From Anaerolinea sp. (GTDB lineage: Bacteria > Chloroflexota > Anaerolineae > Anaerolineales > Villigracilaceae), in contig JAIFKY010000062.1 of the NCBI GenBank assembly GCA_020049345.1, positions 1-23,350 of the forward strand: 23,350 nt of DNA. Reading direction: 5' to 3'. Below the pieces are notes generated by a model. It was not told the origin of the DNA, did not search any database, and was given only the letters and a program-made list of their open reading frames with translations. Numbering within the stretch: the first letter of the stretch is position 1; every line of letters begins with the position of its first letter. A program made the translations under genes and the position numbers. Of the stretch, positions 29 to 23,350 are shown piece by piece.

Positions 29-1296
29 ATGAGCAAAGAAAATGAAGCCGTAATTCTAAGCGCCGCGCGCACAGCCATCGGAAAATTTCAAGGCGGACTG
101 AGCAGCCTCTCTGCTGTAAAACTTGGCGCGGCGGCGGTCAAAGCCGCAGTGGAGCGCGCAGGCATTGACCCAAACGATATTGAAGAAGTCTTGATGGGCA
201 ATGTCATTCAAGCGGGTAACGGACAAGCCCCCGCGCGGCAAGCGGCGATCTTTGCGGGGCTTCCAGCCACAGTCAGCGCGACCACCATCAACAAGGTTTG
301 CGGATCAGGTTTGAAAGCCGTCATGCTTTCGGCGCAAGCCATTCGCGCAGGCGACGCCGATCTCTTCGTAGCAGGCGGCATGGAATCCATGAGCCGTGCG
401 CCGTACCTCGTCAACGGGCGTTCGGGCGAATTGAAGTTCGGTCATCAACCCCTCACCGACGCCCTGCTCCACGACGGGCTGTGGGATCCGTTTGAAAATT
501 GGGGCATGGGCATGGCGGCGGAATTTATCGCGAATGAATACAAAATCACACGCGAGGCGATGGATGAATTTGCGCTTCGCTCCCACCTGAAAGCGGCGGC
601 GGCACAAGAAGCGGGACGGTTCAAGCCTGAGATTTTCCCTGTCCAAATTCCTGGTCGAAAAGGGCGGCGGCACAAGAAGCGGGACGGTTCAAGCCTGAGA
701 TTTTCCCTGTCCAAATTCCTGGTCGAAAAGGCGAAACGACAGCCTTCGACACAGACGAGGGACCGCGCAAAGATACCTCAATTGAGTCGCTTGCCAAACT
801 CAAGCCCGCCTTCAAGGCCGACGGCAAAGTGACCGCAGGCAATGCATCCTCCATGAATGATGGTGCGGCGGCGGTTGTGGTTGCGTCCCGCGCCTACACA
901 GAAAAAAATAATTTCAAACCAATGGCTCACATTACAGGCTACACGCAGGCGGCTTTGGAGCCGAAATATCTGTTTGCCGCGCCTGGGCTGGCAATTCCCA
1001 AACTGTTAAATAAAATCGGCTGGAAACTTGGCGACGTTGATCTCTTTGAAGTCAATGAAGCCTTTGCCGCGCAGGCTCTTGCAAACGGCTACGCCCTCGC
1101 CGATCAAGGCTGGGATTGGGACAAGGTCAATGTCAACGGCGGAGCGATTGCTCTCGGTCACCCACTCGGCGCGAGCGGGGCACGCATACTAACGACTCTG
1201 ATCTACGCCTTGAAAGATCGCGGACTAAAACGCGGAGTCGCTTCGTTATGTTTGGGTGGCGGCGAGGCTGTGGCAATGGCGATTGAGGTTGAGTAA
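29..1296 (+). pseudogene. acetyl-CoA C-acetyltransferase (thiolase II), reading frame broken by an internal 68-bp tandem duplication
   Basis: AGGAGG at 19..24 lies 4 nt upstream of ATG 29. Thiolase signatures are present: NKVCGSGLKA (nucleophile Cys), [24 protein letters not shown] and CLGGGEAVAMAIE. The ORF track splits the gene into 29..832 and 829..1296 in different frames. Deleting one copy (663..730) gives a continuous ...[46 protein letters not shown]... and a 399-aa product. Confidence 0.85.
595..730. repeat. perfect 2 x 68-bp tandem duplication inside the thiolase gene
   Basis: Bases 595..662 (ggcggcggcacaagaagcgggacggttcaagcctgagattttccctgtccaaattcctggtcgaaaag) are repeated exactly at 663..730. 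I compared them base by base. Confidence 0.95.
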
Positions 1297-9285: not shown

Positions 9286-9303
9286 ATTCATCCTTTGTTC
9301 TCC

Positions 9304-10056
9304 ATGTCTTTCACTGGCTTGTTCTGGTTTATCTTAACCCTCCTGCCGCTGGTATTTCTCCAGCGGCTTTTGCATCGTGAGATTCAAGCCGTTTTTTTAA
9401 TTGTGACGCGCAACCTCCAGTTGACGATTGGCTTGTTCTCGATCTTATTTTTGCCGGGCGTATTTCTGCATGAACTAAGTCATTTTTTGATGGCGAAAAT
9501 ATTGCGCGTGCCAACGGGGAAAACTTCACTCATTCCAAAATCCCTGCCAAATGGACGACTGCAAATGGGGTACGTTGAAACCGCGCAGGCAGACATTGTC
9601 CGCGATTCGCTGATCGGAATTGCGCCGTTGATCGCAGGCTCGTCATTTCTCGCCTACGCAGGCTTGAATAAACTTGGGTTAAGCACGCTGCTGGCTGTGT
9701 TGACAAATGGACAACCTGAATTGTTCTGGATGGGATTAAAACTATTGCCGCAAGTCAACGATTTTTACTTGTGGTTCTACCTTGCATTTGCCGTTTCCAG
9801 CACCATGCTGCCCTCCGAATCAGATCGCCACGCCTGGCTTCCGCTTGGACTATGGACAGCAGGGTTGCTTGCCCTTGCGATCTTCGCTGGCGCAGGCACT
9901 TGGATGCTTGAAAATATTACCCCGTTATTAAATGATTTCCTCGGCTCAGTGGCCACTTTATTTGGATTAAGTGTCGCGCTGCATGTGATACTTTTACTGC
10001 CGACAATGCTTCTTCACCGCATTGCTTCAAAGATCAGCGGGGTGGATGTGAAATAA
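9304..10056 (+). CDS. polytopic membrane protein with an HExxH motif (putative intramembrane zinc metalloprotease, M50/DUF3267-like)
   Basis: There are several predicted TM helices. HELSH occurs within FLPGVFLHELSHFLMAK. ATG 9304 is preferred over TTG 9295. I recognised no other family motif. Confidence 0.5.
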   Translation: MSFTGLFWFILTLLPLVFLQRLLHREIQAVFLIVTRNLQLTIGLFSILFLPGVFLHELSHFLMAKILRVPTGKTSLIPKSLPNGRLQMGYVETAQADIVRDSLIGIAPLIAGSSFLAYAGLNKLGLSTLLAVLTNGQPELFWMGLKLLPQVNDFYLWFYLAFAVSSTMLPSESDRHAWLPLGLWTAGLLALAIFAGAGTWMLENITPLLNDFLGSVATLFGLSVALHVILLLPTMLLHRIASKISGVDVK

Positions 10057-11422: not shown

Positions 11423-11452
11423 AGTATAGCATATTCATTTTTTATATTTCAA
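11423..11452 (-). promoter_or_regulatory. sigma-70-like promoter candidate for the Ntn-hydrolase gene
   Basis: On the minus strand: TTGAAA (11447..11452), an 18-nt spacer, then TATACT (11423..11428). The -35 overlaps the stop of the upstream histidine kinase gene. Confidence 0.35.
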
Positions 11453-13320
11453 GTTGAATGCCTTAAGTAAACAATAAATGTAGCGCCTTGATTTAACTCA
11501 CTTTGGACTTCGATCCTTCCGCCCAACTCATCAACGATGGATTTGACAATATAAAGCCCAACGCCGCTGCCCGGAATTTCAGCAACTGTGACATTTCGGG
11601 CGCGATAAAATCGCTCAAACAAATGCGGAATGGCTTCGGGTGGAATGCCAAGCCCGTGATCAGCGATGGAAATACGCACCTCGCCATTCTCACTTTGAGC
11701 CGCCAGCACTTCGATGGTTTTTCCTTCGGGTGAGAATTTGACTGCGTTATTAATAAGGTTAATAAACACTTGCGACAACCCGCCGGCATCGCCAAGAACA
11801 TTAATGGAGGGCTGGTCTGTTTCCAATTTTATGGAAATTTTTCGCGTATTGGCAATTGCTTTTACTGCCTGCACAGATTCTGTCAAAACGGGCAGTAAAT
11901 CCAAGCGAGCCGATTCAAGTTTCATTCTGCCGCTTTCCAAACGCCCCGCCAGCAGTAGTTGATTGATCAAATTCTTCTGGCGATTTAACTCGTGCATCAA
12001 GGTTTCGAGATATTCCGCCATCTCTTCCTGCGTGCCGCCATGCTGCAATAGTTCTGCCATCAAAATGGCGGAGGTTAATGGCGTGCGTAATTCATGCGAA
12101 GCGCGGTTGATAAAATCGGATTTCATCTGATCCAAACGCGCCTGTTCGGTAATATCGCGCACAATGATCAAGGCTTCCTCTGAACTGATGGGGTGCAACC
12201 GCGCTTCGAATACCTGATCGTGATTTGGCAGGCTAAACCCGTACACCCAATGAGCCGCAACAAAAGCGCCCTGCGCTTCTGGATCAATGATCATATTCAC
12301 TACATCCAGCGGCCAAAGTTCAGAGAGTTTGATTCCGATCACCGATTCGCGCGGCAGGTAAAGCGGGTGACTCGGATGAACGCTGTAGTCGAGAATCTGC
12401 CCCAGCAGATCGGTGCGGAGGAGGAGATCAGGCAGCGCATCGACGATAACACGGTTACGCATTTCACTCAGGCGAATGGTTTTTTCGTAGTGCAACCGTT
12501 CCAGCGCGGCGCCGATTAAGTTGGCAGTTGTTTGCACAGCATCAAATTCAGTAGTAAGCCAGGATAATTGATTCTGTTTATCAAATAAGGCAAGAAATCC
12601 CCAAAAGCCCAACATGCCTTGAACGGGAATTACCAGAATGGAAACAAGGGGGATTTCCACGTTATCAATTCTTACGCCGGTCACCGAAAATACGCGCGTG
12701 GGATTCTCGGTAATTGTCTCAAGGAACGGCTCAAGCGCGGTGGTTATGTCGAAAATTGTCGTGTCAAAACTCACCCACTGTGTCTGAATTTTTACGGAAG
12801 ACTTATTAATATCAAGCAGCGCGCAACAAAACACATCCACTGCATATCCCAACGATTCCAGCACTTCGGGGAGTTTTATTTCAATATTGGAAGAGCGGAA
12901 CAAACTTGCGGTCACTTCGCCGATCACCGAAAGCGCGCGCGTATGCCGCTTTAGACTTGCTTCAGATTGCCTGCGTTCCGAGACATCACGCGCCAGCATT
13001 TGAATATAAGCAGGCTGTCCCAGGGCATTATGCACAAAAGACATGCTCAACTCAACAGGCAACATGGAGCCATTTTTTTTCTTTAGCGTATGCTCTGATA
13101 AACTCGAATGTTTTTCAATCAAAACTTCACGCTGATCGACATTTTCAAGCAGCATAATTTCTTCAACGGGCAAGCCTGTTAATTGATGGTCTTCATAGCC
13201 AAGCAATCGCAATGCCTGCGGGTTGGCGGTAATAAGTTTGAAATCCAAACCGATAATGAACACACACTCCCCTGTCTGTTCAAATAGTGCGCGATAATCG
13301 AGGACGGTTTTTTCATCCAT
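11449..13320 (-). CDS. PAS/GAF-domain sensor histidine kinase (cytoplasmic)
   Basis: An N-terminal PAS-like region is followed by a GAF-like middle region. The H-box is RASHELRTPLTSA, the N-box is NLINNAVKFSP, G1 is DHGLGIP and G2 is GSGVGLYIVKS. No TM segment is present. Confidence 0.85.
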   Translation of the reverse strand: MDEKTVLDYRALFEQTGECVFIIGLDFKLITANPQALRLLGYEDHQLTGLPVEEIMLLENVDQREVLIEKHSSLSEHTLKKKNGSMLPVELSMSFVHNALGQPAYIQMLARDVSERRQSEASLKRHTRALSVIGEVTASLFRSSNIEIKLPEVLESLGYAVDVFCCALLDINKSSVKIQTQWVSFDTTIFDITTALEPFLETITENPTRVFSVTGVRIDNVEIPLVSILVIPVQGMLGFWGFLALFDKQNQLSWLTTEFDAVQTTANLIGAALERLHYEKTIRLSEMRNRVIVDALPDLLLRTDLLGQILDYSVHPSHPLYLPRESVIGIKLSELWPLDVVNMIIDPEAQGAFVAAHWVYGFSLPNHDQVFEARLHPISSEEALIIVRDITEQARLDQMKSDFINRASHELRTPLTSAILMAELLQHGGTQEEMAEYLETLMHELNRQKNLINQLLLAGRLESGRMKLESARLDLLPVLTESVQAVKAIANTRKISIKLETDQPSINVLGDAGGLSQVFINLINNAVKFSPEGKTIEVLAAQSENGEVRISIADHGLGIPPEAIPHLFERFYRARNVTVAEIPGSGVGLYIVKSIVDELGGRIEVQSELNQGATFIVYLRHST

Positions 13321-14452
13321 AAAATATATCTTCCGGTCTCAAATCAGGAAGAGTAGCCACCACGTAACAACCCTGCGCAGATTCCAATATTTTCACCTCG
13401 CCGCCCAGGCTGGTAAAAACTGCGCGCGCAACCGTCAAACCAACTCCCAAGCCTTGAAATTCGCGCCCATCGCCCTGACTGACTTGATAAAAACGCTCGA
13501 ATACTTTTTCGCGCAGTTCAACGGGAATGCCAATTCCTTCATCCTGTACCGTAATAACCGCGCCTCCATTTTCGCTCGGCTTAACAGTTAATTTCACCAC
13601 GCCTGACTGTGGGCTGAATTTGAATGCATTATCCACCAAATGCATCACAGACTGGGTAAATTCACGGCGCGGGGCTTTGATCACACCGCTAAAATTAATG
13701 TCGTGGACGAAACTTATGCCCTTTGAATCGTAACGTGCCTGCCTTCTTTTGATGGGCGCCAGAATATGATGCTCCATGTCTATCACCTGGCGCATCATAT
13801 TCAAATTGTTCTGATCAATATCTGCCAGAAGGATGATGTCTGCGATTAATGTTTCCAGACGGTCGGCGCTGGAGTGTGCGATACGCAAAAATTCATTTTG
13901 TTCTTCGGCGGTTTTAAATTTATTATTAACCACCACATCCAGAGACATCATAACGTTGCCCAGTGGCGTGCGTAACTCATGGCTGAAATTTTGCAAGACC
14001 TCTCTGCGAAGTTTCTCCATTTCATCATGCGCGGCCTGCTTTACCTGTTCGCGCCCGCGTTCCTGTTCGGTCTTTACGCGACGCAAAACCGCTTCGATCC
14101 GCGCCACCAATTCTTCGGTGACGAAAGGCTTTGTCACATAATCATCTGCGCCGTCACGCATTCCAGCCACTCGATCTTCAGTGGATGTGCGCGCGGTAAG
14201 AAAGATGAATGGAATGGGCGACAGCAATGGATCCACGCTCATTTGTTGTTTCATCTCAAAACCATTTAGGTCGGGCATCATCACATCCGAGATGATCAAA
14301 TCTGGCAGAGATTGCCTTGCCTTCAAAAAACCATCATCGCCATTAACGGCAGTGATCACACTGTAGCCATAGTGTCCAATCGTCGCGGCAAGCCCCATGC
14401 GAATGGAAGGCTCATCATCTACGATAAGAATGGTAAATTTTTTTTCTTCCAT
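13313..14452 (-). CDS. hybrid response-regulator receiver / histidine kinase
   Basis: The REC domain shows ILIVDDEP, IISDVMMPDLNG and YVTKP. The H-box is FSHELRTPLGNV. ATPase motifs are VDNAFKFSP, DEGIGIP and GLGVGLTVAR. The stop overlaps the start of the next kinase gene by 8 nt. Confidence 0.85.
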   Translation of the reverse strand: MEEKKFTILIVDDEPSIRMGLAATIGHYGYSVITAVNGDDGFLKARQSLPDLIISDVMMPDLNGFEMKQQMSVDPLLSPIPFIFLTARTSTEDRVAGMRDGADDYVTKPFVTEELVARIEAVLRRVKTEQERGREQVKQAAHDEMEKLRREVLQNFSHELRTPLGNVMMSLDVVVNNKFKTAEEQNEFLRIAHSSADRLETLIADIILLADIDQNNLNMMRQVIDMEHHILAPIKRRQARYDSKGISFVHDINFSGVIKAPRREFTQSVMHLVDNAFKFSPQSGVVKLTVKPSENGGAVITVQDEGIGIPVELREKVFERFYQVSQGDGREFQGLGVGLTVARAVFTSLGGEVKILESAQGCYVVATLPDLRPEDIFYG

Positions 14453-14793: not shown

Positions 14794-16056
14794 ATGTTTA
14801 TAGATCAAGTTAACATCCACGTAAAATCAGGCAAAGGCGGCGACGGCATGGTGCATTTCCGCCGCGAGAAGTTTGTACCACTTGGCGGACCAGATGGGGG
14901 TGACGGCGGCAGGGGCGGCAATGCCATCTTTGAGGTAAAAGCCACGCTCAATACACTTTCTGCGTTTCGACAAAACGAAAAGTTCGCGGCAGACCCAGGC
15001 AAAAATGGCGGCGGCTCCGAAAAAACCGGTCGCGGCGGAAAAGACCTCATCATCTATGTTCCGCCCGGCACTGTGGTTTATGACGCCGAAACAGGCGACC
15101 TGCTTGGCGACCTGACCGAAGCAGGACAGCAACTATTGGTCTGCAAAGGCGGGCGCGGCGGGCTGGGCAACCAGCACTACGCCACCTCGCGCAACCAGGC
15201 TCCGCGCATGGCAGAACGCGGCGAACCGCACGAAGAGAAACTACTGCGTCTTGAACTCAAACTCATCGCCGATATTGGCATTATTGGATTGCCCAATGCG
15301 GGCAAATCCACTTTGCTTGCGGCGTTGACCAATGCCAAGCCAAAGATCGGCGATTACCCATTCACCACGCTGGAACCCAACCTCGGCGTGGCAAATATTG
15401 ACGATGACACCACCGTGGTCATGGCAGACATTCCAGGCTTGATCGAAGGCGCGGCGGAAGGCGCAGGCTTGGGTCACGACTTTCTGCGTCACATTCAACG
15501 TACCCGTGTATTGATCCACATGGTAGACGGGCTATCCGAAGACCCGCTCGCAGACTTTAGCCAAATCAACAACGAGCTATCGCTCTTCGACACAAAACTT
15601 GGCGACAAACCACAGATCGTGGTACTTAACAAAATTGATCAACCCGATGTGCAGGAACGGCTGAAAGCCATCAAGGCAAGTTTCAAAAAACAAAAAGTGG
15701 AATTGATCACAGCCTCGGCAATGGCGCGTACCAACACACGCGATATTTTAATTGCGGCTTACCGAAAACTGGGTGAAATGCCAATCGAAGAATTGGACGA
15801 AACCCTGCCCGTGTACAAGCCTGAGGTAGACCCAAATCAATTTGAGGTCGCGCAAGAGGAAGACGGCAAGTGGCGCATCACAGGCGTTGCCATCGAACGC
15901 TCGGCAAAAATGACGTACTGGGAGCACGACGGCTCGGTTCGCAGATTCCAAAAACTGATGGAAAGACTCGGTGTGGATAAAGCCCTCAACGAAGCCGGCA
16001 TCGAAGAAGGCGACACCGTATACGTGGGCAATTTTGAATTGGAGTGGAAAGACTAA
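14794..16056 (+). CDS. obg: GTPase Obg/CgtA
   Basis: The N-terminus is the canonical MFIDQVNIHVKSGKGGDGMVHFRREKF. A Gly-rich Obg fold is followed by G1 GLPNAGKST, G3 DIPGLIEGA and G4 NKID. A C-terminal OCT-like domain is present. Confidence 0.95.
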   Translation: MFIDQVNIHVKSGKGGDGMVHFRREKFVPLGGPDGGDGGRGGNAIFEVKATLNTLSAFRQNEKFAADPGKNGGGSEKTGRGGKDLIIYVPPGTVVYDAETGDLLGDLTEAGQQLLVCKGGRGGLGNQHYATSRNQAPRMAERGEPHEEKLLRLELKLIADIGIIGLPNAGKSTLLAALTNAKPKIGDYPFTTLEPNLGVANIDDDTTVVMADIPGLIEGAAEGAGLGHDFLRHIQRTRVLIHMVDGLSEDPLADFSQINNELSLFDTKLGDKPQIVVLNKIDQPDVQERLKAIKASFKKQKVELITASAMARTNTRDILIAAYRKLGEMPIEELDETLPVYKPEVDPNQFEVAQEEDGKWRITGVAIERSAKMTYWEHDGSVRRFQKLMERLGVDKALNEAGIEEGDTVYVGNFELEWKD

Positions 16057-16238
16057 GAGAGCGTTTCTTAAGTCAGACCCTAAGAGATTGTTTAATAATC
16101 CCGCTTTTTGACCACAAAGGCACGAAGTCTCAAAGACTCGAAGGGGAAAACTTTGTGGCTTTGTGTCTTGGTGACTTCGTGGTGAAGTTATTAAACAGTC
16201 TCTTAGGGTCTTTGTCAGCGAGTTAAGAAACAGTCTCA
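16057..16238. repeat. palindromic MITE-like element (copy 1) abutting the obg stop codon
   Basis: The arms are imperfect inverted repeats: gagagcgtttcttaagtcagaccctaagagattgtttaataa (16057..16098) versus ttattaaacagtctcttagggtctttgtcagcgagttaagaaacagtctc (16189..16238). The core contains CACGAAGTC / CACAAAG motifs. Confidence 0.75.
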
Positions 16239-16354
16239 AAGTAGTCGGTTGAAAGGTTTTAGAACACCTTTGGCTTTTCGGGGGCTTAGCCCCCGAAAGA
16301 GCAGGGATGGGTTTTAAAATTATTTTCAACGAGTTACTTAAACCAGAGGAGCCC

Positions 16355-16777
16355 ATGTTTGCACAAAAAAACCTCAAACAACGCGCAATAATAATCAGCC
16401 TCATCATTCTTGGCGTATTATTCACCGCATTCTTTGGAATGCGCGCATTCCGCGCCTTAAAAAAGTTTGATGGGCATGGACCTCCGCCGCGCGAAAAAGT
16501 TGAAACCGATGTTGAATTGATCCGCGAATGGATGACAGTTTCCTTCATCTCAAAAACATACCGCGTCCCTGAAAAAGAAATCTTTGACGCAATCAAGGTT
16601 TCTCCGCTGGGTAGCCACGATAAAAGCTTGAAAGAATTGAATAACGACTACTATCCAGATAAAGATGGATTTGTGATGGACACAGTCAAAGCGGTAGTCC
16701 TCGAAAAACAACCCCCGCCGCAGCCTGATTCTGCTCCGACAGCAGTTTCCACACCGAAAACGCCCGCTGCGCCATAA
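16355..16777 (+). CDS. hypothetical N-terminally anchored membrane protein with a Pro-rich C-terminus
   Basis: GAGGAG precedes ATG 16355. The basic N-terminus MFAQKNLKQR is followed by the TM helix AIIISLIILGVLFTAFFGM. I recognised no family. The track start at 16307 lacks an SD. Confidence 0.5.
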   Translation: MFAQKNLKQRAIIISLIILGVLFTAFFGMRAFRALKKFDGHGPPPREKVETDVELIREWMTVSFISKTYRVPEKEIFDAIKVSPLGSHDKSLKELNNDYYPDKDGFVMDTVKAVVLEKQPPPQPDSAPTAVSTPKTPAAP

Positions 16778-16785
16778 CCCATCAC

Positions 16786-17382
16786 ATGTCTGAATTTTTC
16801 CTCACACAAGTCATTAATTTTGGCGCACCGCTTATAGGGCTTATCCTTTTTCTGGGAGCGCTTGGGTTCCCCGTTGGCGCATCGGTAGTTGTAATTGCAG
16901 CAGGCGCGTTTAGTCAACAAGGTATATTGGACTGGCCCAGCGCAATATTAATTGGGCTGATTGGCGCAGTCATTGGAGATACCCTTAGTTACGGCATTGG
17001 ACATTATGCAAAAGACTGGACACAGCAACGGTTCGGAACCTCCCCCGCCTGGATCAACGCCAGCCAGTCGTTTCAAAACAATGCAGGCTGGGCCATCTAC
17101 CTCACACGCTGGCTGATCACCGCCGTAGCCATCCCCACCAATTTGATTGCGGGTGGAAGCGAATATAAATTTTCACACTTTCTGCTTTATGATTTAACAG
17201 GCGAATTCACCTGGATAGTGCTTTACGGCGGTCTTGGGTATTGGTTTGGCAGTGAATGGGAATTGGTTTACGACTTCATCAGCAACTTTGGCGGTTTGGT
17301 TCTGGGAATAGCCCTGCTTGGCTTTGGCATCAAGCAGGCATGGAACTGGCAGGAAAAGAAAAAACAAGCCTTAGAGACCTGA
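16786..17382 (+). CDS. DedA/VTT-domain family membrane protein
   Basis: The DedA-type motif GDTLSYGIGHYAK is present. There are multiple TM helices and the length is 198 aa. The start is 8 nt after the preceding stop. Confidence 0.7.
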   Translation: MSEFFLTQVINFGAPLIGLILFLGALGFPVGASVVVIAAGAFSQQGILDWPSAILIGLIGAVIGDTLSYGIGHYAKDWTQQRFGTSPAWINASQSFQNNAGWAIYLTRWLITAVAIPTNLIAGGSEYKFSHFLLYDLTGEFTWIVLYGGLGYWFGSEWELVYDFISNFGGLVLGIALLGFGIKQAWNWQEKKKQALET

Positions 17383-17474
17383 GGTTATGCGCGAACAACT
17401 CCGAAGGAGTGAAATGATTATAGATTTGCGAAAAATGGATGAAATAACCCCGAAGGGGTGTCAGGGCTTTTAAC

Positions 17475-17521
17475 GCGGAGCGAAGAACCTCTTATTTCAA
17501 GGTAGAGACCCTTCGCTCCGC
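17475..17521. repeat. GC-rich palindromic unit (GAGCGAAG / CTTCGCTC type)
   Basis: An 11-bp stem gcggagcgaag (17475..17485) / cttcgctccgc (17511..17521) has a 25-nt loop. It is preceded by the mini-hairpins actccgaaggagt (17398..17410) and accccgaaggggt (17447..17459). Confidence 0.7.
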
Positions 17522-17550
17522 TCAGGGAATCACGCTTTAGGTGCGTAAGG

Positions 17551-17645
17551 TGACTTAATAATTTCACCACGAAGTCACAAAGACACAAAGTTTTCCCCTT
17601 CGAGTCTTTGCGGTCAAAAAAGCGGGCTTATTAAACAGACTCCAT
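17551..17645. repeat. copy 2 (core only, inverted orientation) of the 16057..16238 element family
   Basis: Its reverse complement aligns to 16087..16200. The identical runs are caaagactcgaaggggaaaactttgtg and gtgacttcgtggtgaa. There are two indels (16 nt and 8 nt). Confidence 0.8.
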
Positions 17646-17657
17646 TCCCCCTTGGGC

Positions 17658-17705
17658 AAAGAAAAAAACAACAAAAAAAGAGACACTCAATTTCTGAGAG
17701 TCTCT
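17658..17705 (-). terminator. strong intrinsic terminator ending the cytochrome / YeeE operon
   Basis: On the minus strand, the stem-loop agagactctca-gaaat-tgagtgtctct (17679..17705, one bulge) is followed directly by CTTTTTTTGTTGTTTTTTTC (complement of 17661..17680). It begins 23 nt after the stop codon at 17729..17731. Confidence 0.85.
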
Positions 17706-17728
17706 TTCTATTTTCTGCGTTCTGTTTT

Positions 17729-19030
17729 TTATCCGCAGCCGCCGCCAGATTTATCTCGCTTGAGTTGCAGGACTATCTTGGCTTCAAATTCGAGCGCTTC
17801 ATATTCGACGGGACTGGGTGAGCAAGACTCGTAATTACTGCCCAATGCCGCAGGGAAGATATAGCCCAATTCGTCGTCACCCGCTTTCGGGTTGGCTTGC
17901 AGCGCTTTATCATCCGTGCCAAAGAATGCGATCCAGTTGTTGACTCCGCCTTCAAGAATATACGAGTTGGTCACGCCACTTCCGACAAGCAATTTCCATG
18001 CGTCGGTGGCGGCGGTTTCGTCATTGCCCATCACGATGAATACTGAGTTGGCGGGCGGTTCGCTGAGCAAGAGCGGAACAATTTCGGTGATGCGATCCAG
18101 CGGTACATTGACCGCGTCTTCGACGTGATACAGGTTGTATTCCGCTTCAGGGCGCACATCAATATAAATGGGATTCATCGCCTGATTGTATTTTGCCTTG
18201 AAGGCTTCGGCGGGCGTGATGTGTACCAGCCGTTTTGCAAGCATGTCATCAGCAGTATAAGTATAGGTGTTGACGATTGGATCTGCATTCAATTGCGGAA
18301 TGCTTTCGGTGCGCGTGAATTTGACCTTGTTATATTTGTCTTCGAGAGAAGGCGAGCCGATGAAGAAGACCGCCAACGCGCCGACAAACAATGCCACTGC
18401 GCCAGCCACGCGGATTTTCGGTTCCTTGCTCAAATCTTTTTTACCGATGATGCGTTCCAATTGTTCCGCGCCCCAGAACATGAAAAGCGCCATGAGGATG
18501 ACGAGCACAACCACCGCGCCGATGGGAATTCCAAAAACTTGATCGAGGGTCAAACGCCCTAAGTAGCCCGCGTTGTTGTACCAGTTGGTGAAGAGTGGTT
18601 CGGTTTCGCCGAAAAGGAATGCGCCCACAAATCCACCGAGCATGAAGAGCATACCGTCGATTTTTCCTGTAGATGCGGATGCAAGCGAGGTAGTGGGACA
18701 GAACCCGCCGATGATGAAGCCGACGCCCATGATAAGTCCGCCAAGAATGCCAGACCAGATGTAGGTTGTGTTGACCCAGACTTGGCTGAAGTCGAGGATG
18801 CCAAGTCCAACCGCGCCGAAAAGCAAAACCATGGCGGTGACAATGGCGGTAAACATGACCTTGAGCACGGTCAATTCGGTGAAGTAGAACTGCGCGGCAA
18901 GTTTGCGTGAATCGCCGAAACCTGACATTTCAAGGGTGAAGCCGAAGGCAAAGCCAACCAGCGCGAATACGAGATAACTCCACGGGTTAGCCGCACTGAC
19001 TGCGATAAGGGATGGGATGGGAAAATTCAT
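17729..19030 (-). CDS. YeeE/YedE-family sulfur-transport half-protein fused to a rhodanese-like domain lacking the catalytic Cys, with a C-terminal ...SGGGCG tail
   Basis: AGGAGA SD lies 7 nt upstream. The N-terminal ~190 aa are polytopic and carry the conserved GGFCPTTS motif. An extra TM helix is IRVAGAVALFVGALAVFFIG. The rhodanese-like block is IYIDVRPEAEYNLYHVEDAVNVP...FIVMGNDETAATDAW...ILEGGVNNW, with G where the active-site C is expected. Confidence 0.75.
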   Translation of the reverse strand: MNFPIPSLIAVSAANPWSYLVFALVGFAFGFTLEMSGFGDSRKLAAQFYFTELTVLKVMFTAIVTAMVLLFGAVGLGILDFSQVWVNTTYIWSGILGGLIMGVGFIIGGFCPTTSLASASTGKIDGMLFMLGGFVGAFLFGETEPLFTNWYNNAGYLGRLTLDQVFGIPIGAVVVLVILMALFMFWGAEQLERIIGKKDLSKEPKIRVAGAVALFVGALAVFFIGSPSLEDKYNKVKFTRTESIPQLNADPIVNTYTYTADDMLAKRLVHITPAEAFKAKYNQAMNPIYIDVRPEAEYNLYHVEDAVNVPLDRITEIVPLLLSEPPANSVFIVMGNDETAATDAWKLLVGSGVTNSYILEGGVNNWIAFFGTDDKALQANPKAGDDELGYIFPAALGSNYESCSPSPVEYEALEFEAKIVLQLKRDKSGGGCG

Positions 19031-19046
19031 GATAAAGTCTCCTGAA

Positions 19047-19103
19047 TAATTACCAATTACTAATTACCAACCTGCGTAATTTGTAATTGGTGATTGGTAA
19101 TTA
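19047..19103 (-). repeat. AT-rich intercistronic hairpin overlapping the upstream stop codon (TAATTACCAAT family)
   Basis: taattaccaat (19047..19057) pairs with attggtaatta (19093..19103). Imperfect pairing continues inward to about 19070/19080. The hairpin contains the 14-mer attactaattacca at 19056..19069. The stop codon of the upstream gene is 19101..19103. Confidence 0.75.
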
Positions 19104-19646
19104 GTTCCACAACTTCCTGACGAAATACGCCAACGCATACGCCCCGCCGAAGATGGAAAACATCACCAGCCATGAACCAGCGGAGAGGGTCGTGCCGCCT
19201 GTCAGCGCCTGCCCCGATGTACATCCGCGAGCCATGCGCGCGCCGTAAAGGAAGATCACGCCGCCAAGGAATGCCATCAACCAGCGGGTGCGGTTGGAGA
19301 TGTTGGGACCTTTGGTGGTCATAAATTTGAGGCGTCCGTTGAATGCGCCAGAAGCGAATCCGCCGAGCAGTGCGCCGATGAAGACTGGGAGAATCCAATC
19401 GTCAAAAGGATTTTTATCGCCGCCAGCCATCTTCAACAAATAAGGATTGTTGTCCACGTGGGAAGGGGAAACCGCATCCACGAGCGCTGCGTCAATACGA
19501 GCGGTTGCGCCCGATGAGCCGAGTCCATTGCCTGTGAAGAGCAACGCCAGGAACAGAATAACGCCCAGCACCATTCCGCCAAAGTAAGGGTGTACGTAAG
19601 GTTTTTCAGGTCGGTTGAATATTGTTTTTTTTGTTTGAGTAGTCAT
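19101..19646 (-). CDS. YeeE/YedE-family sulfur-transport half-protein
   Basis: AAGGAG SD lies 6 nt upstream of ATG 19646; the track start at 19691 lacks an SD. The protein is polytopic and carries the conserved ARGCTSGQALTGG motif typical of the Sulf_transp family. Confidence 0.8.
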   Translation of the reverse strand: MTTQTKKTIFNRPEKPYVHPYFGGMVLGVILFLALLFTGNGLGSSGATARIDAALVDAVSPSHVDNNPYLLKMAGGDKNPFDDWILPVFIGALLGGFASGAFNGRLKFMTTKGPNISNRTRWLMAFLGGVIFLYGARMARGCTSGQALTGGTTLSAGSWLVMFSIFGGAYALAYFVRKLWN

Positions 19647-19690
19647 TTGATACTCCTTATTAATAAAACAGTTGCGAGGTACGAAATACA

Positions 19691-19733
19691 AGTAATGAGT
19701 AACGAGTTATGAGATTGCTCGTTACTCATTACT
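19691..19733 (-). repeat. perfect 16-bp intercistronic hairpin
   Basis: agtaatgagtaacgag (19691..19706) pairs with ctcgttactcattact (19718..19733), with an 11-nt loop. It lies between the cytochrome stop (19743) and the next start (19646). No good U-tract follows on the transcribed strand. Confidence 0.8.
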
Positions 19734-19742
19734 TTTTACTTA

Positions 19743-22451
19743 TTATTTTTTTTCCTGCTCTTCATGCACTTCCACTTCTTCATAACCTGTCACCATCGCG
19801 CGCATCGCCTCAAGCGGAGTTGCGCCCGTGGTGGTCATGTAGACATGGACAATGATGAATGTTCCGAACATCCACGCGACGAGGGAGTGGAATGGCGCAA
19901 GAACTGGAAGTCCGCCAAGCGCGTTTGTGAACGCGGGGAATTTTTGCACTGCCCACATCAACGAACCTGTGATAATTTGAAGCGGCAGTAATACATTCAA
20001 GATCATGAAGTAGGTAAACTTCTGAATCGGGTTCATGCGGCTGGTCGGCAATTTCTCAAACGGATGTCCTTCACCTTTGAAAATTCCAGAGATGTAATAC
20101 TTCGCCTGAACAATCGCGTCATCAAAGAAACCATACGGATGCGGAATAAATTCCTGAATGCGCTCAGTTGCAACATGGTAGAAGAGTGAGAATACCGCGT
20201 TCAGCACAAGAATAACCGCAATAACGTTGTGGATCGTCACCATGCCAGGGAACGAGAACACACCGAAGATATCGGGTCTGTGGATGATCAAACCTGTCAG
20301 AAGCAGAATAACGATGGAGGTGGTCTGGAGCCAGTGCCAGAAGCGGCGATACGGTTCGTACATGTAAACGCGCTCGGTCTTTGCGTGACCCTTAGCCTGT
20401 TTCTTCGACGATAAGAATCTCAGCGTCCCGTGACCAATTACGCCCAAAAGTGATCCAGCGAACATCAACGCGCCCAGCCAATCAATCCAACTTACACGGC
20501 TGGAGCCGAAAACATACATCTTATCTTTGGCGGGGGCAGGTTGATAGTACAACGCGCCATCTGCGCCAGTGACAATTTCACCCGTGCCGTTTACGTTGTT
20601 GTCCGCGTCAAAGACGGGCATCACAGGGGCGTGATCTGCAAGTTTGATGGATTGCGTCATACGCGAATTTTCGTTGTGACAGGCTTTGCAATCGTTGACC
20701 GCGTCATCGCCTTTGGCAACGTTGTGATTAATGCTGTACGGCTGAACCATGCCTTCGATGCGTGGATTATCCAACCCAAGCGCAACCAATTTGGCTTTGA
20801 CCGCGCCTTCTTTTGCAGGCGAATCAATCACTAATTCGGCGCTGCTCAGTTTTCCATCGCTGTTTGCGTCAAACGCAGCAACGATGTCGCTTGCGTAATT
20901 TCCACTATCAAGATACGCGGCTTCGAGGTCAACCAGACGGACGGGACGTTTGCTGCCATCGGCGTTGGCATCATCATACACCCAGTAGAAGGATGTAATC
21001 AGGTTGTACGGCGCAAGTAATGTATCGCCGTCAATATTTGTGCGGTTTAGTAAAACGGGTTCATAGCCCGATACAAGCGAGGTTACTTCATTCGGCGTAC
21101 CTTCCACGCCACGACATTCGGTGGAAGCGGTTCCGGCAGTTGTAATCACGGTCCAATCATAGGTTTGGATCGCAGGCGCGTACATTTGCGGGATATGGCA
21201 GGTTTCGCAGGCGACGGCATTCATGTGTGTGTCCACATAAGGCAGCCAGTCTGCATGGCTCTTGGTGGCGTCGTGGCAGTTTTCACAGCGGCGCATGGTG
21301 CCTTTGTATTCAGGCGCAACATTGAATTGTGCGCTTTCGCCGCGTGCAAAGTTATGATCTGGTCTTTGCAGGTATTCACCAATTTCCAAAGAGCGCGGAT
21401 CATAAACCAGGTGTTCAGGGTTGTTACTTTGGATTTCGCTGATGTGCGAGGGATTGTTCAACGCATAATGGCAATCAACACATTGCAACTGGCGTTCTGC
21501 GTGAATATCCCACGGGCGATTCAGTTCAGCCTTATTCGTCAGGTTTATGCCTGATTCGTTGATACGCTGTCCGCTGACAACTTGACCTGTGGTGGCTGTT
21601 TGCGGGTAGTTCAAGTCACACTGATTGACGGTGAGCGGGTCACCAGAATTGGGATGCACTTCACCATGACAAGTCGCACAGTTGGCATTGGTGGGGTCTT
21701 GAATGCCAATCGCATCACTCTTGATTTCGCCAATTTCGTTGAAGGCATCTGCGTTCCAAGTCCAGCCGTCAGTAGATTTGCTGACGATGTTCAAGTCGGT
21801 CAAGGTGGCGGTGTTGGCATTGCCAAAATCACCCGCTTGGATTGCCTCTGTGCGGGCGGTGGTGTTGGGAGATTTAAGGTGGCAGAGGAAACAATTCATT
21901 TCCATCGTGCCAGATTTGTCCCAATCCCAAACTGTGGGATTTCCATCTTTATCAAGAATGGCTGTTTCGGGATTTTCGACATCATCCTTGAGATTGTCAA
22001 GCGCCGCGCCATCGCGGGATGTGGTGGTTGGTCCGCCGCCGACGATTCTCTGTCCGTTGAGCATGAGCCATTCAGCGGTGGAAAGGTCGAGTCGTTCATC
22101 ACCATTCTGTGAGAGGTAGCGATAGGTCAGCGGATCCCATTTGCCAAAGAGTCCGGTGCTGGAACTCAGGTCTTTTGTTTCTTTATAATCTGAAAGCCCG
22201 AGGTCAGAGTGGAAGGCGTGGCTTTGGATGAAGTTCGTGTCGTGGCATTGTCCGCAGGTTTGCATGGTTGAAACCGCATTGCTGCTTTCGAGGACATTCA
22301 CGCCATCAACATCGAGCAGGGCAAAGTTCGGGTGCAGGACAGATGCCTGGGGTGTCGGAGCAGGTTCGGGCGAGGCGAGAACGGTTCCAATTCCAATGGC
22401 AAGAGCCAGGGCAATTAATCCAAGCAGGAGAAATAATGAGTATCGTTTCAT
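19743..22451 (-). CDS. fusion protein: signal/anchor peptide + heptahaem c-type cytochrome domain (Otr-like) + C-terminal FdnI/HydC/PhsC-type cytochrome b membrane domain (CbcL-like architecture)
   Basis: There are seven CxxCH motifs: CGQCH, CFLCH, CATCH, CVDCH, CENCH, CETCH and CKACH. The N-terminal hydrophobic leader is LFLLLGLIALALAIGIGTVLA. The C-terminal ~250 aa have 5 TM helices with the Ni_hydr_CYTB-type signature YRRFWHWLQTTSIVILLLTGLIIH and conserved His residues in later helices. AAGGAA SD lies upstream. Confidence 0.85.
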   Translation of the reverse strand: MKRYSLFLLLGLIALALAIGIGTVLASPEPAPTPQASVLHPNFALLDVDGVNVLESSNAVSTMQTCGQCHDTNFIQSHAFHSDLGLSDYKETKDLSSSTGLFGKWDPLTYRYLSQNGDERLDLSTAEWLMLNGQRIVGGGPTTTSRDGAALDNLKDDVENPETAILDKDGNPTVWDWDKSGTMEMNCFLCHLKSPNTTARTEAIQAGDFGNANTATLTDLNIVSKSTDGWTWNADAFNEIGEIKSDAIGIQDPTNANCATCHGEVHPNSGDPLTVNQCDLNYPQTATTGQVVSGQRINESGINLTNKAELNRPWDIHAERQLQCVDCHYALNNPSHISEIQSNNPEHLVYDPRSLEIGEYLQRPDHNFARGESAQFNVAPEYKGTMRRCENCHDATKSHADWLPYVDTHMNAVACETCHIPQMYAPAIQTYDWTVITTAGTASTECRGVEGTPNEVTSLVSGYEPVLLNRTNIDGDTLLAPYNLITSFYWVYDDANADGSKRPVRLVDLEAAYLDSGNYASDIVAAFDANSDGKLSSAELVIDSPAKEGAVKAKLVALGLDNPRIEGMVQPYSINHNVAKGDDAVNDCKACHNENSRMTQSIKLADHAPVMPVFDADNNVNGTGEIVTGADGALYYQPAPAKDKMYVFGSSRVSWIDWLGALMFAGSLLGVIGHGTLRFLSSKKQAKGHAKTERVYMYEPYRRFWHWLQTTSIVILLLTGLIIHRPDIFGVFSFPGMVTIHNVIAVILVLNAVFSLFYHVATERIQEFIPHPYGFFDDAIVQAKYYISGIFKGEGHPFEKLPTSRMNPIQKFTYFMILNVLLPLQIITGSLMWAVQKFPAFTNALGGLPVLAPFHSLVAWMFGTFIIVHVYMTTTGATPLEAMRAMVTGYEEVEVHEEQEKK

Positions 22452-22478
22452 AGTGAATTCCTTGGAGGTTAGTAATTG

Positions 22479-22514
22479 GTAAATGGTAATTACCGATTAC
22501 TAATTACCATTTAC
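22479..22514 (-). repeat. perfect 14-bp intercistronic hairpin overlapping the upstream stop codon (TAATTACCA family)
   Basis: gtaaatggtaatta (22479..22492) pairs with taattaccatttac (22501..22514), with an 8-nt loop. The stop codon of the upstream cytochrome gene is 22511..22513. The hairpin contains the 14-mer attactaattacca at 22496..22509. Confidence 0.85.
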
Positions 22515-23350
22515 TTCCTTCCACCCCATTCGATTGGGTCGCCAGCGTAACCGAGGGCTTCCCAATCCATGCGGCCGGGTTCGCCCGAAGGAGAATGGCA
22601 GGCGTTGCATTGCAGGGCTTTGTCGGCAGATTGCACCATGTGGGTTGTGGGCCAGTACATGTAGGTTTCAGTGAAGCCGTATTCGCCGCTGTAGGGTAAG
22701 CCCATTCTTTCCTGGGCTAATTTGAAGGAGTTGTCCCAGTCAAAATTTGTCCAGAAGCCGTCTGTGCCTGAGGTAATGGGTTGAAGCAGGTAATTATTTT
22801 TTACATCGTAGGGTTGTTTGGCGATGTGCAGTTTGAATGGGAAAATTTTTGCGGTGTTATCTTTGATGTTGCCCGCAGGTTTGTTGATGTAGGTAATGCC
22901 ATCCTTGCCGAGCGGGTCGCCGAGGATGTAACGATATTCATTGTTGCCATTAAACCAGAGGTAGGTGGGCGCAAAGTTTTTGTCGTAGACAAATTCACCT
23001 TTGATCTTGAGGTAGGTGAAATGGTCATCAGTGCGTCCGTCTTGTCCGGCCTGTGACCAGTCCCATGTAACTTTGGTTGGGTCTTCCAGCGCAATGGCGG
23101 GAATGTGACAGGTTTGACATGCAACAGCAGAAAGATGGGTATTGAGTCGTTCATCTTCGTGCTTTTGATTCACGTGGCACTGTTCGCAGGAAACTTGTTC
23201 CTTCGGGTCAATGGTGTAATTATCGGCAACCATGCGACCTAAAATTTGATGGTCAGTGGCGACATGGCAATCAATACATTGCATATTGGCGTCGCCGCCC
23301 ATGTGGATGTCAATATTTTGATCGGGGAAGTACATGCTCTCGTCGAGGTC
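22511..23350 (-). CDS. multihaem c-type cytochrome, probable octahaem tetrathionate-reductase (Otr) family, 5' end outside the window
   Basis: Four CxxCH motifs lie in the visible C-terminal 279 codons: CIDCH, CEQCH, CQTCH and CNACH. The frame stays open to the window edge (DLDES precedes the first Met). The C-terminal GRMDWEALGYAGDP matches my memory of Otr-family proteins. It is a clear paralog of the c-domain of the next gene. Confidence 0.6.
   Translation of the reverse strand, partial: DLDESMYFPDQNIDIHMGGDANMQCIDCHVATDHQILGRMVADNYTIDPKEQVSCEQCHVNQKHEDERLNTHLSAVACQTCHIPAIALEDPTKVTWDWSQAGQDGRTDDHFTYLKIKGEFVYDKNFAPTYLWFNGNNEYRYILGDPLGKDGITYINKPAGNIKDNTAKIFPFKLHIAKQPYDVKNNYLLQPITSGTDGFWTNFDWDNSFKLAQERMGLPYSGEYGFTETYMYWPTTHMVQSADKALQCNACHSPSGEPGRMDWEALGYAGDPIEWGGRK

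Follow-up and report, generated by a model that had tools for sequence, protein, structure and literature searches.

What does an octahaem cytochrome c of the Otr family do when it is encoded in one operon with its own quinol dehydrogenase and with the two halves of a YeeE-type sulfur channel? The question is raised by positions 17658..23350 of a 23,350-nucleotide (nt) stretch of DNA from Anaerolinea sp. (contig JAIFKY010000062.1 of assembly GCA_020049345.1), and this whole stretch is referred to below as the window. OTR was crystallised in 2004, and the locus adds gene context to its family. We propose, with a probability of roughly one half, that the four genes visible in the window and an ArsR-type regulator gene form a single operon, which would provide an outward-facing, quinol-fed reductase of inorganic sulfur compounds together with a dedicated sulfur-handling cassette. 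This proposal is carried by the family assignments of the genes, by a gene order that recurs across phyla, by the exchange of the Otr part for PhsA/PsrA-type enzymes in front of the same cassette, and by an invariant C-terminal cysteine tail in the last gene product, a feature that an earlier sequence-only reading of the window had overlooked.

Operon layout and recovery of the 5' end

The sequence-only reading had described four co-directional genes on the minus strand, their spacers and a terminator, and every one of these details was borne out by open reading frame (ORF) and domain searches of the window and by a fold of the terminator. Gene A (22511..>23350) encodes the C-terminal 279 amino acids (aa) of an Otr-family octahaem cytochrome c, the 5' part of the gene lying past the end of the window. 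In the product of gene B (19743..22451; 902 aa), a heptahaem c domain is joined to a dihaem cytochrome b of the PhsC/FdnI type. The other two genes correspond to YeeE/YedE halves: C (19101..19646; 181 aa) to the C-terminal one (helices H8-H13), and D (17729..19030; 433 aa) to the N-terminal one, followed by a rhodanese-like domain and a GGCG tail. The genes are separated by spacers of 59 nt (A-B), 96 nt (B-C) and 70 nt (C-D), and a ribosome-binding motif of the GGAG/AAGGA type precedes each of B, C and D. The start of gene C was set at ATG 19646 on the basis of homology (the protein of the related locus L002 begins MATQTRK) and of the GGAG motif. The operon is closed by an intrinsic terminator on the same strand (17658..17705), a hairpin of ~10 base pairs, AGAGACUCUCA-GAAAU-UGAGUGUCUCU, followed by U7 (T7 in the DNA) and located 24 nt past the stop codon of D; its fold has a z-score of -2.6 relative to shuffled sequences. 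A generic promoter and terminator scan of 17000..23350 performed at chance level overall and did not pick up this terminator, and a promoter-like match that the same scan placed inside the C-D spacer was not used as evidence.

The missing 5' part of gene A was recovered from a JGI metagenome contig (L163) that is 99.3% identical to window positions 17443..23350 and reaches further upstream. On this contig the full-length Otr protein is 481 aa long; it begins with a hydrophobic anchor or signal and carries eight CXXCH motifs. A gene for a 111-aa ArsR/SmtB-type regulator is found 10 nt upstream of the Otr gene, preceded in turn by an intergenic region of 868 nt. Genes for regulators of this type (111-115 aa) immediately precede that of Otr, with an overlap or a gap of 10 nt, in L163 (5055..5390), L002 (8209..8556) and L001 (8135..8482), and an ArsR gene stands upstream of Otr in 38 of 52 related loci. 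With unrelated flanks in each case, the five-gene unit ArsR-Otr-B-C-D was also detected in a JGI contig of 205 kb and an Anaerolineales metagenome-assembled genome (MAG) of 4.9 Mb. The operon of the window includes this fifth gene, which lies just beyond the window edge. The ArsR-type protein has a single conserved cysteine, in the motif LHAxxCxALxDPxR, and scores under the cutoffs of the BigR, TsoR and CmtR models.

An Otr-family cytochrome and a fused quinol dehydrogenase

The families that the sequence-only reading had named for all four genes held in searches against TIGR04315, PF01292, PF04143 and PF00581. The gene A fragment carries four CXXCH motifs, which correspond to haem motifs 5-8, and as a partial protein it matched TIGR04315 (octaheme_Shew) with 336 bits (4e-100) over model positions 165-440, as well as PF11783 (2.8e-56). 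The full-length Otr of L163 scored 549 bits against TIGR04315, for which the curated cutoff is 375, and the L002 orthologue aligned with OTR of Shewanella oneidensis (PDB 1SP3) at an E-value of 6e-132 and ~50% identity. Eight CXXCH motifs were present in the Otr proteins of both L163 and L002, and all eight were kept in 90-91 of 91 Otr homologues that are linked to the C/D cassette. The equivalents of Lys56 and Cys64 (1SP3 numbering), which fall in the part of the gene beyond the window end and were read from the orthologues, are conserved between L002 and 1SP3 and invariant in the 91 cassette-linked homologues. Lys56 of OTR is reported to ligate the active-site haem (Mowat et al. 2004). On its sequence, gene A is a bona fide member of the Otr family. 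Its clear TIGR04315 membership led us to reject an assignment as an MccA sulfite reductase, and an MtrA/OmcA-type electron conduit was likewise rejected, as only faint sub-threshold matches to such proteins were obtained.

Nitrite and hydroxylamine are much better substrates of purified OTR than tetrathionate, and in genetic work of 2026 Shewanella otr mutants had no tetrathionate phenotype, sulfite being put forward as a speculation (PMC12949373). An otr gene of Acidobacteriota was induced 36-fold by tetrathionate in microcosms (10.1101/2020.10.01.322446). A cluster of 'Otr and cytochrome b561' in an Ignavibacteriae MAG received a one-line mention, in which it was discussed as a possible nitrite reductase (PMC7509429).

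The product of gene B starts with a hydrophobic signal or anchor helix, continues with seven CXXCH motifs spread over ~630 residues (~30-650), and ends with a linker transmembrane (TM) helix and a cytochrome b domain (~654-891). The b domain matched PF01292 (Ni_hydr_CYTB) at 7e-22, with 78 bits against a gathering score of 30, and its histidines H706, H724, H741, H759, H855 and H869 were invariant in 40 homologues. The best NCBIfam match of B was PhsC, the cytochrome b that oxidises menaquinol in thiosulfate reductase (PRK15006/NF011582; 1e-37, residues 654-891), with 130 bits against an equivalog cutoff of 204, so that the protein is PhsC-like and is not PhsC; neither PhsA nor PhsB is encoded in the window operon. 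The heptahaem domain has a low haem density (seven in 630 aa) and is remotely similar to Otr and to MmcA. It had been called paralogous to Otr; the local similarity between the two is weak (BLASTP, 3e-10, 23% identity over 286 aa), and it is at best a putative paralogue. A role as wire or adaptor is more probable for this domain than one as a second catalyst, since it is only remotely related to Otr and the distant loci described below lack it. B is predicted to be a menaquinol dehydrogenase and wire, and it is plausible that electrons move from quinol by way of cytochrome b and haem c to Otr, as the sequence-only reading had drawn. Two further cysteines of the heptahaem domain that lie outside the CXXCH motifs, Cys278 and Cys446, were also invariant in 40 homologues; they could form a disulfide or have a functional role.

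Genes C and D as halves of a YeeE-type channel

Both remaining genes matched the Sulf_transp family (PF04143), gene C at 3e-19 over model positions 165-309 and gene D at 4e-15 over model positions 11-186. Cys142 of C, in the motif RGCTSG, is the equivalent of StYeeE C293 and was invariant in 148 homologues. Cys111 of D, in the motif GGFCPTTS, is the equivalent of StYeeE C91 and was invariant in 39 homologues down to 28% identity. A canonical YeeE/TsuA protein is not what these genes encode: the halves are split into separate genes, C22 is missing while the cysteines equivalent to C91 and C293 are kept, no YeeD/TsuB gene adjoins, and TsuA models of NCBIfam scored C and D at 19-28 bits, against cutoffs of 400-645. 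No TusA/YeeD-like gene was found in the conserved unit of the L001, L002 and L163 loci. Judged from these alignments, C and D together rebuild a YeeE fold with its two essential cysteines, and they are YedE1E2/PmpAB-like and not TsuA.

This distinction bears on what may pass through the channel. Full-length YeeE imports thiosulfate together with YeeD (PMC7449682, PMC11073785). Split YedE1E2 pairs, by contrast, import zero-valent sulfur by way of essential cysteines and adjoin ArsR regulators, and a full-length YedE3 gave no import in the same assay (PMC10812762). The YeeE-like SoxT proteins import sulfur that is destined for oxidation and also acts as a signal to ArsR-type repressors (PMC11582611).

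Conservation of the module and exchange of its reductase

Close homologues, at least 72% identical to the window proteins, were abundant for both B (at least 120 clusters at 90% identity) and D (at least 120 clusters), and among the matches listed all were from Anaerolineales/Chloroflexi. More distant loci were collected in two scans, in each of which the pattern matched more than 600 times. The first covered one genome per GTDB species with a profile of diverse D homologues, the pattern leaving out the closest relatives, and gave 80 loci in which D was 43-60% identical to D of the window; the second gave 80 metagenome loci with D-like proteins of ~30-35% identity. Hosts in the first scan were mostly Chloroflexota (Anaerolineales, Caldilineales, Promineifilaceae and Ardenticatenaceae), together with one Acidobacteriota MAG and two Lysobacterales/Xanthomonadales MAGs. 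The order Otr-B-C-D was found in 59 of its 60 informative loci, the exception (L055) having C and D alone, and seven further loci ended inside B. The fusion of cytochrome b to a domain with seven CXXCH motifs was kept in 49 of 55 loci of this GTDB genome scan.

In the metagenome scan, where the median guanine-plus-cytosine (GC) content was 41%, 47 of the 80 loci were informative. In forty of these, Otr was followed by a PhsC-like cytochrome b that stands alone (~219 aa) and then by C and D; the heptahaem domain is missing from this distant version of the module. In six others, Otr and cytochrome b were replaced by a molybdoenzyme of PhsA/PsrA type, exported by twin-arginine translocation (TAT) and accompanied by a 4Fe-4S subunit and an NrfD/PsrC anchor, and one had the cassette alone. 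Operons of the PhsA/PsrA variant, with the split YeeE pair after the molybdoenzyme, 4Fe-4S and NrfD genes, lie at 3703..9997 of L137, 3702..10423 of L162 and 3656..9910 of L114. The best curated NCBIfam match of the variant molybdoenzyme was PhsA (1.9e-141), and the enzyme was not TtrA-like.

Taken together, Otr and the cassette were linked in ~100 of ~107 informative loci, across phyla, and because the same gene order recurs at ~100 independent loci the arrangement is far beyond chance. The unit that the sequence-only reading expected to be conserved was found as such in Chloroflexota, Acidobacteriota, Xanthomonadales/Lysobacterales and low-GC metagenome lineages. Since a PhsA/PsrA-type set can take the slot of Otr and cytochrome b, the cassette would serve interchangeable extracytoplasmic sulfur reductases. 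In terms of gene context, the C/D pair is a mobile accessory of outward-facing, quinol-dependent sulfur-compound reductases, with Otr and cytochrome b its commonest partner by far. The sulfur link proposed earlier is strengthened by the same exchange: because PhsA/PsrA-type enzymes replace Otr and cytochrome b before the same cassette, the module as a whole is likely to act on a sulfur substrate.

A non-catalytic rhodanese-like domain with a cysteine tail

Residues 286-368 of D (17927..18175, minus strand) matched PF00581 at 1.6e-11 and also matched the rhodanese-like proteins 6MXV and 3ILM of the PDB. The catalytic cysteine of 6MXV aligns with Met334 of D, and in 39 homologues (28-44% identity) this column holds M, S or G, never Cys, within a loop of the form S/G/M-N-D-E. 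The fused rhodanese-like domain that had been reported earlier is there as a fold and lacks its catalytic cysteine; by homology, it is a non-catalytic domain of the inactive type.

The side of the membrane on which this domain lies was predicted from several lines of evidence. In StYeeE the N-terminus is outside, the H1-H6 segment ends outside, and H7 crosses inward (PMC7449682). In D, the region that aligns with H1-H6 is followed by an H7-like helix (residues 165-185), a K/R-rich loop (186-205) and a further TM helix (206-224), giving six TM helices. Across the family, successive loops of D have 0.16, 1.36, 0.24, 0.73, 0.65 and 1.88 K+R per 10 residues, a pattern that fits the positive-inside rule, and the N-terminus of C is K/R-rich and cytoplasmic, as expected for H8-H13. 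Homology to StYeeE, the number of TM helices, the positive-inside statistics, and the anchors and lipoboxes of unfused orthologues are the reasons for which both termini of D are predicted to be outside, with the rhodanese-like domain and the tail extracytoplasmic.

The tail itself is the feature that most sets D apart. The protein ends in ...KRDKSGGGCG-COOH, the codons of G-G-G-C-G, including Cys432, lying at 17732..17746 (minus strand), and it is this segment that we propose as a covalent sulfur-carrier arm. Gly431-Cys432 was invariant in 39 homologues down to 28% identity, the tail read GGCG in 78 of 82 loci, and nearly all full-length representatives of clusters at 50% identity ended in GGC(G). 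The related loci hold 3329 ORFs that are 100 aa or longer, and 166 of these had a C-terminal GGC(G), 130 of them fused and 36 free-standing. The free rhodanese-GGC proteins are ~200 aa long and occur in operons where the YeeE N-half is unfused (35 of the 36 on the cassette strand). In the PhsA/PsrA-variant operons (L137, L162 and L114), the rhodanese-GGC part is encoded apart, as one or two membrane-anchored proteins. Hydrophobic anchors or lipoprotein signals marked the N-terminus of 31 of the 36 free proteins, several being of the lipoprotein type (e.g., ...AFSCGNS), and in 19 of the 36 the terminal cysteine was the sole cysteine. As a lipoprotein or signal-anchored protein is extracytoplasmic, the tail would therefore work outside the cell membrane.

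Further free rhodanese proteins ending in GGC-COOH were seen at L084 9236..12312, L083 6311..7417 and L092 399..1472. Some of these are lipoprotein-like and have two rhodanese domains in which the catalytic cysteine is kept, and in L084 a gene for an Alginate_exp/DUF5777-like outer-membrane beta-barrel follows the rhodanese-GGC genes. The possibility that the GGCG tail is a GlyGly-CTERM or PEP-CTERM sorting signal was rejected, as no C-terminal TM helix follows the tail.

The sequence-only reading had given the domain another role. In that account, thiosulfate is formed from tetrathionate by Otr outside the cell and enters through the split YeeE, and a cytoplasmic rhodanese-like domain accepts it in the place of YeeD/TusA. 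The confirmed family assignments, the thiosulfate import by full-length YeeE with YeeD (PMC7449682, PMC11073785), the lack of a YeeD/TusA gene in the conserved unit and the tetrathionate-induced otr gene of Acidobacteriota (10.1101/2020.10.01.322446) all fit this chain of events. Its last step fails on the domain itself, which lacks the catalytic cysteine in every family member (Met, Ser or Gly in its place) and is predicted to lie outside the membrane, so that a cytoplasmic substitute for YeeD was rejected on both topology and the missing cysteine. The step before it is weakened by the assay in which split YedE1E2 pairs imported zero-valent sulfur and full-length YedE3 did not (PMC10812762), and the first step by the Shewanella otr mutants that had no tetrathionate phenotype (PMC12949373) and by the enzyme that replaces Otr, which is PhsA/PsrA-like and not TtrA-like. 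We consider this account unlikely, and it is nevertheless the alternative that survives best.

Proposed mechanism and competing readings

The reading that we prefer, a quinol-fed extracytoplasmic sulfur reductase with its own sulfur-handling cassette, can be drawn as a path of electrons and a path of sulfur. Menaquinol would be oxidised by the PhsC-like dihaem b domain of B, as its domain family and topology suggest, and electrons would run from there through the seven extracytoplasmic c-haems to Otr at the outer face. C and D would form a channel lined by the two invariant cysteines (the C293 and C91 equivalents), and the two extra TM helices of D would put the rhodanese-like domain and its glycine-rich, cysteine-ended tail on the outer face of the membrane. 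There a covalent adduct (persulfide, polysulfide or thiosulfonate) may form between a sulfur species and the tail cysteine, in a manner comparable to the SoxY arm or to Sud. The tail may then offer the bound sulfur to Otr for reduction, deliver it to the channel at its outer mouth, or both. Cysteine exchange within the channel would relay sulfur inward, for assimilation or for sensing by the ArsR repressor, and the ArsR protein may sense the imported species.

Gene context also points to a substrate and to a reductive direction. Because of the exchange between Otr and PhsA/PsrA and because of the PhsC-like anchor, the analysis favours sulfane sulfur/polysulfide or thiosulfate as the substrate; tetrathionate is possible, because of the 36-fold induction of the Acidobacteriota otr gene (10.1101/2020.10.01.322446). 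A more specific version is put forward tentatively, as a possibility that we hold to be clearly less probable than the operon model itself. In this version, rhodanese-GGC(G)-COOH proteins would be an unrecognised class of covalent extracytoplasmic sulfur carriers, in which a swinging arm like that of SoxY is built on a rhodanese scaffold; they would shuttle sulfane sulfur among insoluble or dilute external sulfur, the reductase (Otr or Psr/Phs) and the cysteine-relay YeeE channel, and the substrate of cassette-linked Otr would be a protein-bound persulfide, polysulfide or thiosulfonate and not free tetrathionate or nitrite.

Several points weigh against the operon model. All of the module chemistry is proposed from gene content and context, and so is any reason for tying a respiratory reductase to an importer. 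SqrR and BigR, which are persulfide sensors, are two-Cys proteins, unlike the ArsR protein of this operon with its one conserved cysteine. The topology is a prediction, and the AlphaFold2 models, for which alignments were limited to sequences at least 72% identical, are poor (mean pLDDT of 48 for D, pLDDT of 50 for B) and lend it no structural support. The likeness of the tail to SoxY is one of a short motif only. The C/D cassette occurs now and then without any reductase (L055, L152), so its function is not strictly Otr-dependent. Finally, OTR prefers nitrite and hydroxylamine in vitro, and its loss in Shewanella leaves no tetrathionate phenotype (PMC12949373).

The same parts could in principle run in the oxidative direction. 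Otr would then oxidise sulfide, or couple thiosulfate to the tail cysteine in the manner of SoxXA, with electrons passing via the haems and cytochrome b to quinone and with carrier-bound sulfur imported through C and D for processing in the cytoplasm. By established redox potentials, the oxidation of sulfide to S0 thermodynamically fits menaquinone reduction, whereas the thiosulfate/tetrathionate couple (+198 mV) is unable to reduce menaquinone. Multihaem enzymes of the Otr superfamily can run either way, and a SoxY-like tail beside a YeeE-like importer recalls SoxYZ and SoxT of sulfur oxidisers (PMC11582611, PMC5336275). However, PhsC, the nearest match of the cytochrome b, and the PhsA/PsrA-like enzymes that can partner the cassette both belong to reductive systems, and no sHdr, Dsr, PDO or Sox genes adjoin the module in any locus inspected. 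An oxidative mode is, in our view, quite unlikely.

The in vitro preference of OTR would fit a role in nitrogen metabolism, in which Otr would reduce nitrite or hydroxylamine (or NO) for ammonification or detoxification and the YeeE and rhodanese genes would be a separate sulfur transporter on a shared transcript. Nitrite and hydroxylamine are the preferred in vitro substrates of OTR, whose structure is related to those of NrfA and HAO (PMC12949373, PMC10949509), and the Otr and cytochrome b561 pair of Ignavibacteriae has been discussed in this sense (PMC7509429). Such a role is improbable here: Otr is linked to the Cys-lined channel and the rhodanese-GGC protein at most informative loci and across phyla, as counted above, the presence of PhsA/PsrA-type enzymes in the Otr slot is hard to reconcile with it, and no nitrogen-metabolism genes adjoin.

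The Psr/Phs family includes a respiratory selenite reductase. Least probable of all is a selenium or tellurium module, in which a selenite-like oxyanion is reduced outside, the reduced species enters through a YedE-like channel and the tail cysteine binds Se, since the NCBIfam matches of C and D to YedE/FdhT models of selenium metabolism (3e-7 and 2e-4) that speak for it, along with selenium transport by a YedE-like protein in Methanococcus according to work cited in PMC11582611, are weak and far under the cutoffs (30 against 350 bits), selD, yedF and selenoprotein genes are absent from the conserved unit, and the module is widespread in ordinary Anaerolineales of freshwater, sludge and sediment, where sulfur compounds are far more abundant.

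Significance

Most of the environmental Otr homologues sampled are tied by synteny to a PhsC-like quinol dehydrogenase, a Cys-lined YeeE channel and a Cys-tailed rhodanese-like carrier. This synteny and the appearance of PhsA/PsrA in the same slot make a concrete, testable argument that these Otr proteins act in sulfur respiration or trafficking, and they provide a first strong genomic clue to the natural role of the Otr cytochrome family. Should the tentative carrier reading prove true, it would settle the 20-year-old question of the role of Otr, at least in Chloroflexota and other environmental lineages. Proteins of the rhodanese-GGC-COOH kind may represent a new type of sulfur carrier outside the cytoplasm. 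Anaerolineales and related Chloroflexota, in which the module is very common, are abundant in activated sludge, sediments and groundwater; it could matter for cryptic sulfur cycling and for the annotation of 'tetrathionate reductase' genes in metagenomes.

Remainder of the window

The rest of the window encodes housekeeping functions, namely thiolase, 3-hydroxyacyl-CoA dehydrogenase, CofD, GAPDH, PGK, TIM, kinases, Obg and a DedA/VTT protein. Genes of the ttr, phs, psr and sox systems were absent from it, which upholds the earlier statement that the window has none. The Thiolase_N and Thiolase_C domains fall in separate plus-strand ORFs (29..832 and 829..1296) with a 4-nt overlap; these are probably one acetyl-CoA acetyltransferase gene (29..1296) broken by a frameshift, as an assembly error or a pseudogene. 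A PAS-domain histidine kinase gene (11449..13320, minus strand) overlaps a hybrid response-regulator/histidine-kinase gene (13313..14452, minus strand). The pair (11449..14452) is on the operon strand ~3 kb from the operon, with Obg and other genes between, and nothing ties it to the operon. Three ORFs had no Pfam match: 9295..10056 (plus strand), 16307..16777 (plus strand) and 15748..16596 (minus strand). The last of these overlaps the Obg gene and ORF 16307..16777 and is probably not a real gene.

Comparison with known systems

With OTR of Shewanella (1SP3; TIGR04315), the product of gene A shares the eight CXXCH motifs, the Lys56 and Cys64 equivalents and a clear family match. The Shewanella-type protein is soluble in the periplasm and thought to be fed by CymA (PMC12949373), whereas the Otr described here starts with a hydrophobic anchor or signal and shares its operon with a dedicated quinol dehydrogenase and a sulfur cassette. 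Cytochrome b and the YeeE cassette are both missing from Otr loci of the Shewanella type, which encode a DUF3373 protein and a monohaem cytochrome c. In Shewanella algae (L164 3814..7401) and Marinobacter (L166 3900..7383), the monohaem cytochrome c and a DUF3373 protein of ~570 aa are encoded upstream of otr; the S. algae locus also has a divergent PsrABC-like operon ~3 kb upstream of otr, and the otr gene of Malonomonas is solitary.

The architecture of B is that of CbcL from Geobacter, in that an extracytoplasmic multihaem c domain sits on a dihaem b anchor of the HydC/FdnI type that interacts with quinol, here in one 902-aa polypeptide. CbcL has nine haems and B seven, and the two were compared by architecture. 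Unlike CbcL, distant relatives of B have a free-standing b subunit with no c domain. PhsC provides the closest match to the b domain, including the extra N-terminal TM helix of PhsC, at a score below the PhsC equivalog cutoff.

YeeE/TsuA of Spirochaeta thermophila and E. coli has, like C and D together, both Sulf_transp halves and the C91 and C293 positions; the reference proteins are single polypeptides of ~330-350 aa with nine TM helices, C22, C91 and C293, and an adjacent YeeD/TsuB. YedE1E2 and PmpAB resemble the pair more closely, with adjacent half-size genes, one essential cysteine each and an ArsR-type regulator nearby (PMC10812762, PMC11582611). D differs from YeeE, SoxT, PmpAB and YedE1E2 alike in its two extra TM helices, its rhodanese-like domain and its GGCG tail, and is much longer than PmpB owing to these added parts. 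The placement of a C/D pair within a respiratory cytochrome operon has not been described for any of the four. To our knowledge, a physical fusion of a YeeE-type channel with a putative carrier of this kind has no earlier example.

For the tail, the C-terminal motif of SoxY, GGCGG, is the nearest parallel. SoxY carries pathway intermediates covalently on its cysteine swinging arm (PMC5336275), and like D it has a single conserved cysteine on a flexible, glycine-rich C-terminus outside the cytoplasm. The parallel is one of analogy only, as the scaffold of D is rhodanese-like and not homologous to SoxY, and D has no SoxZ partner; no SoxY or SoxZ domains were found by Pfam in the operon proteins. 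Sud of Wolinella and other rhodaneses deliver (polysulfide-)sulfur to sulfur reductases, according to work cited in PMC6378623. Sud shares with D an extracytoplasmic cysteine on a rhodanese scaffold that is encoded beside a redox enzyme acting on bound sulfur. D differs from it in that the canonical active-site cysteine is absent, the cysteine is at the C-terminus, and the protein is tethered or fused to a membrane channel.

As a whole, the module resembles PsrABC/PhsABC and MccABCD, where a membrane quinol dehydrogenase feeds an outward-facing reductase of sulfur compounds. It departs from the Psr, Phs and Mcc systems in having an octahaem cytochrome and not a molybdoenzyme as the catalytic subunit, and a cytochrome b and not NrfD as the anchor, and the channel and carrier cassette is no part of these systems as described. 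No description of Otr with a YeeE cassette or a GGC tail was found in the searchable literature, where the mention of the Ignavibacteriae cluster (PMC7509429) was the sole hint, reviews in subscription journals (e.g., by Simon and co-workers) being outside the search. The module may be a quinol-dependent, extracytoplasmic sulfur-compound reductase with a carrier protein, a variant of a known logic, in which the possibly new element is the rhodanese-GGC-COOH carrier fused to a YeeE half-channel.

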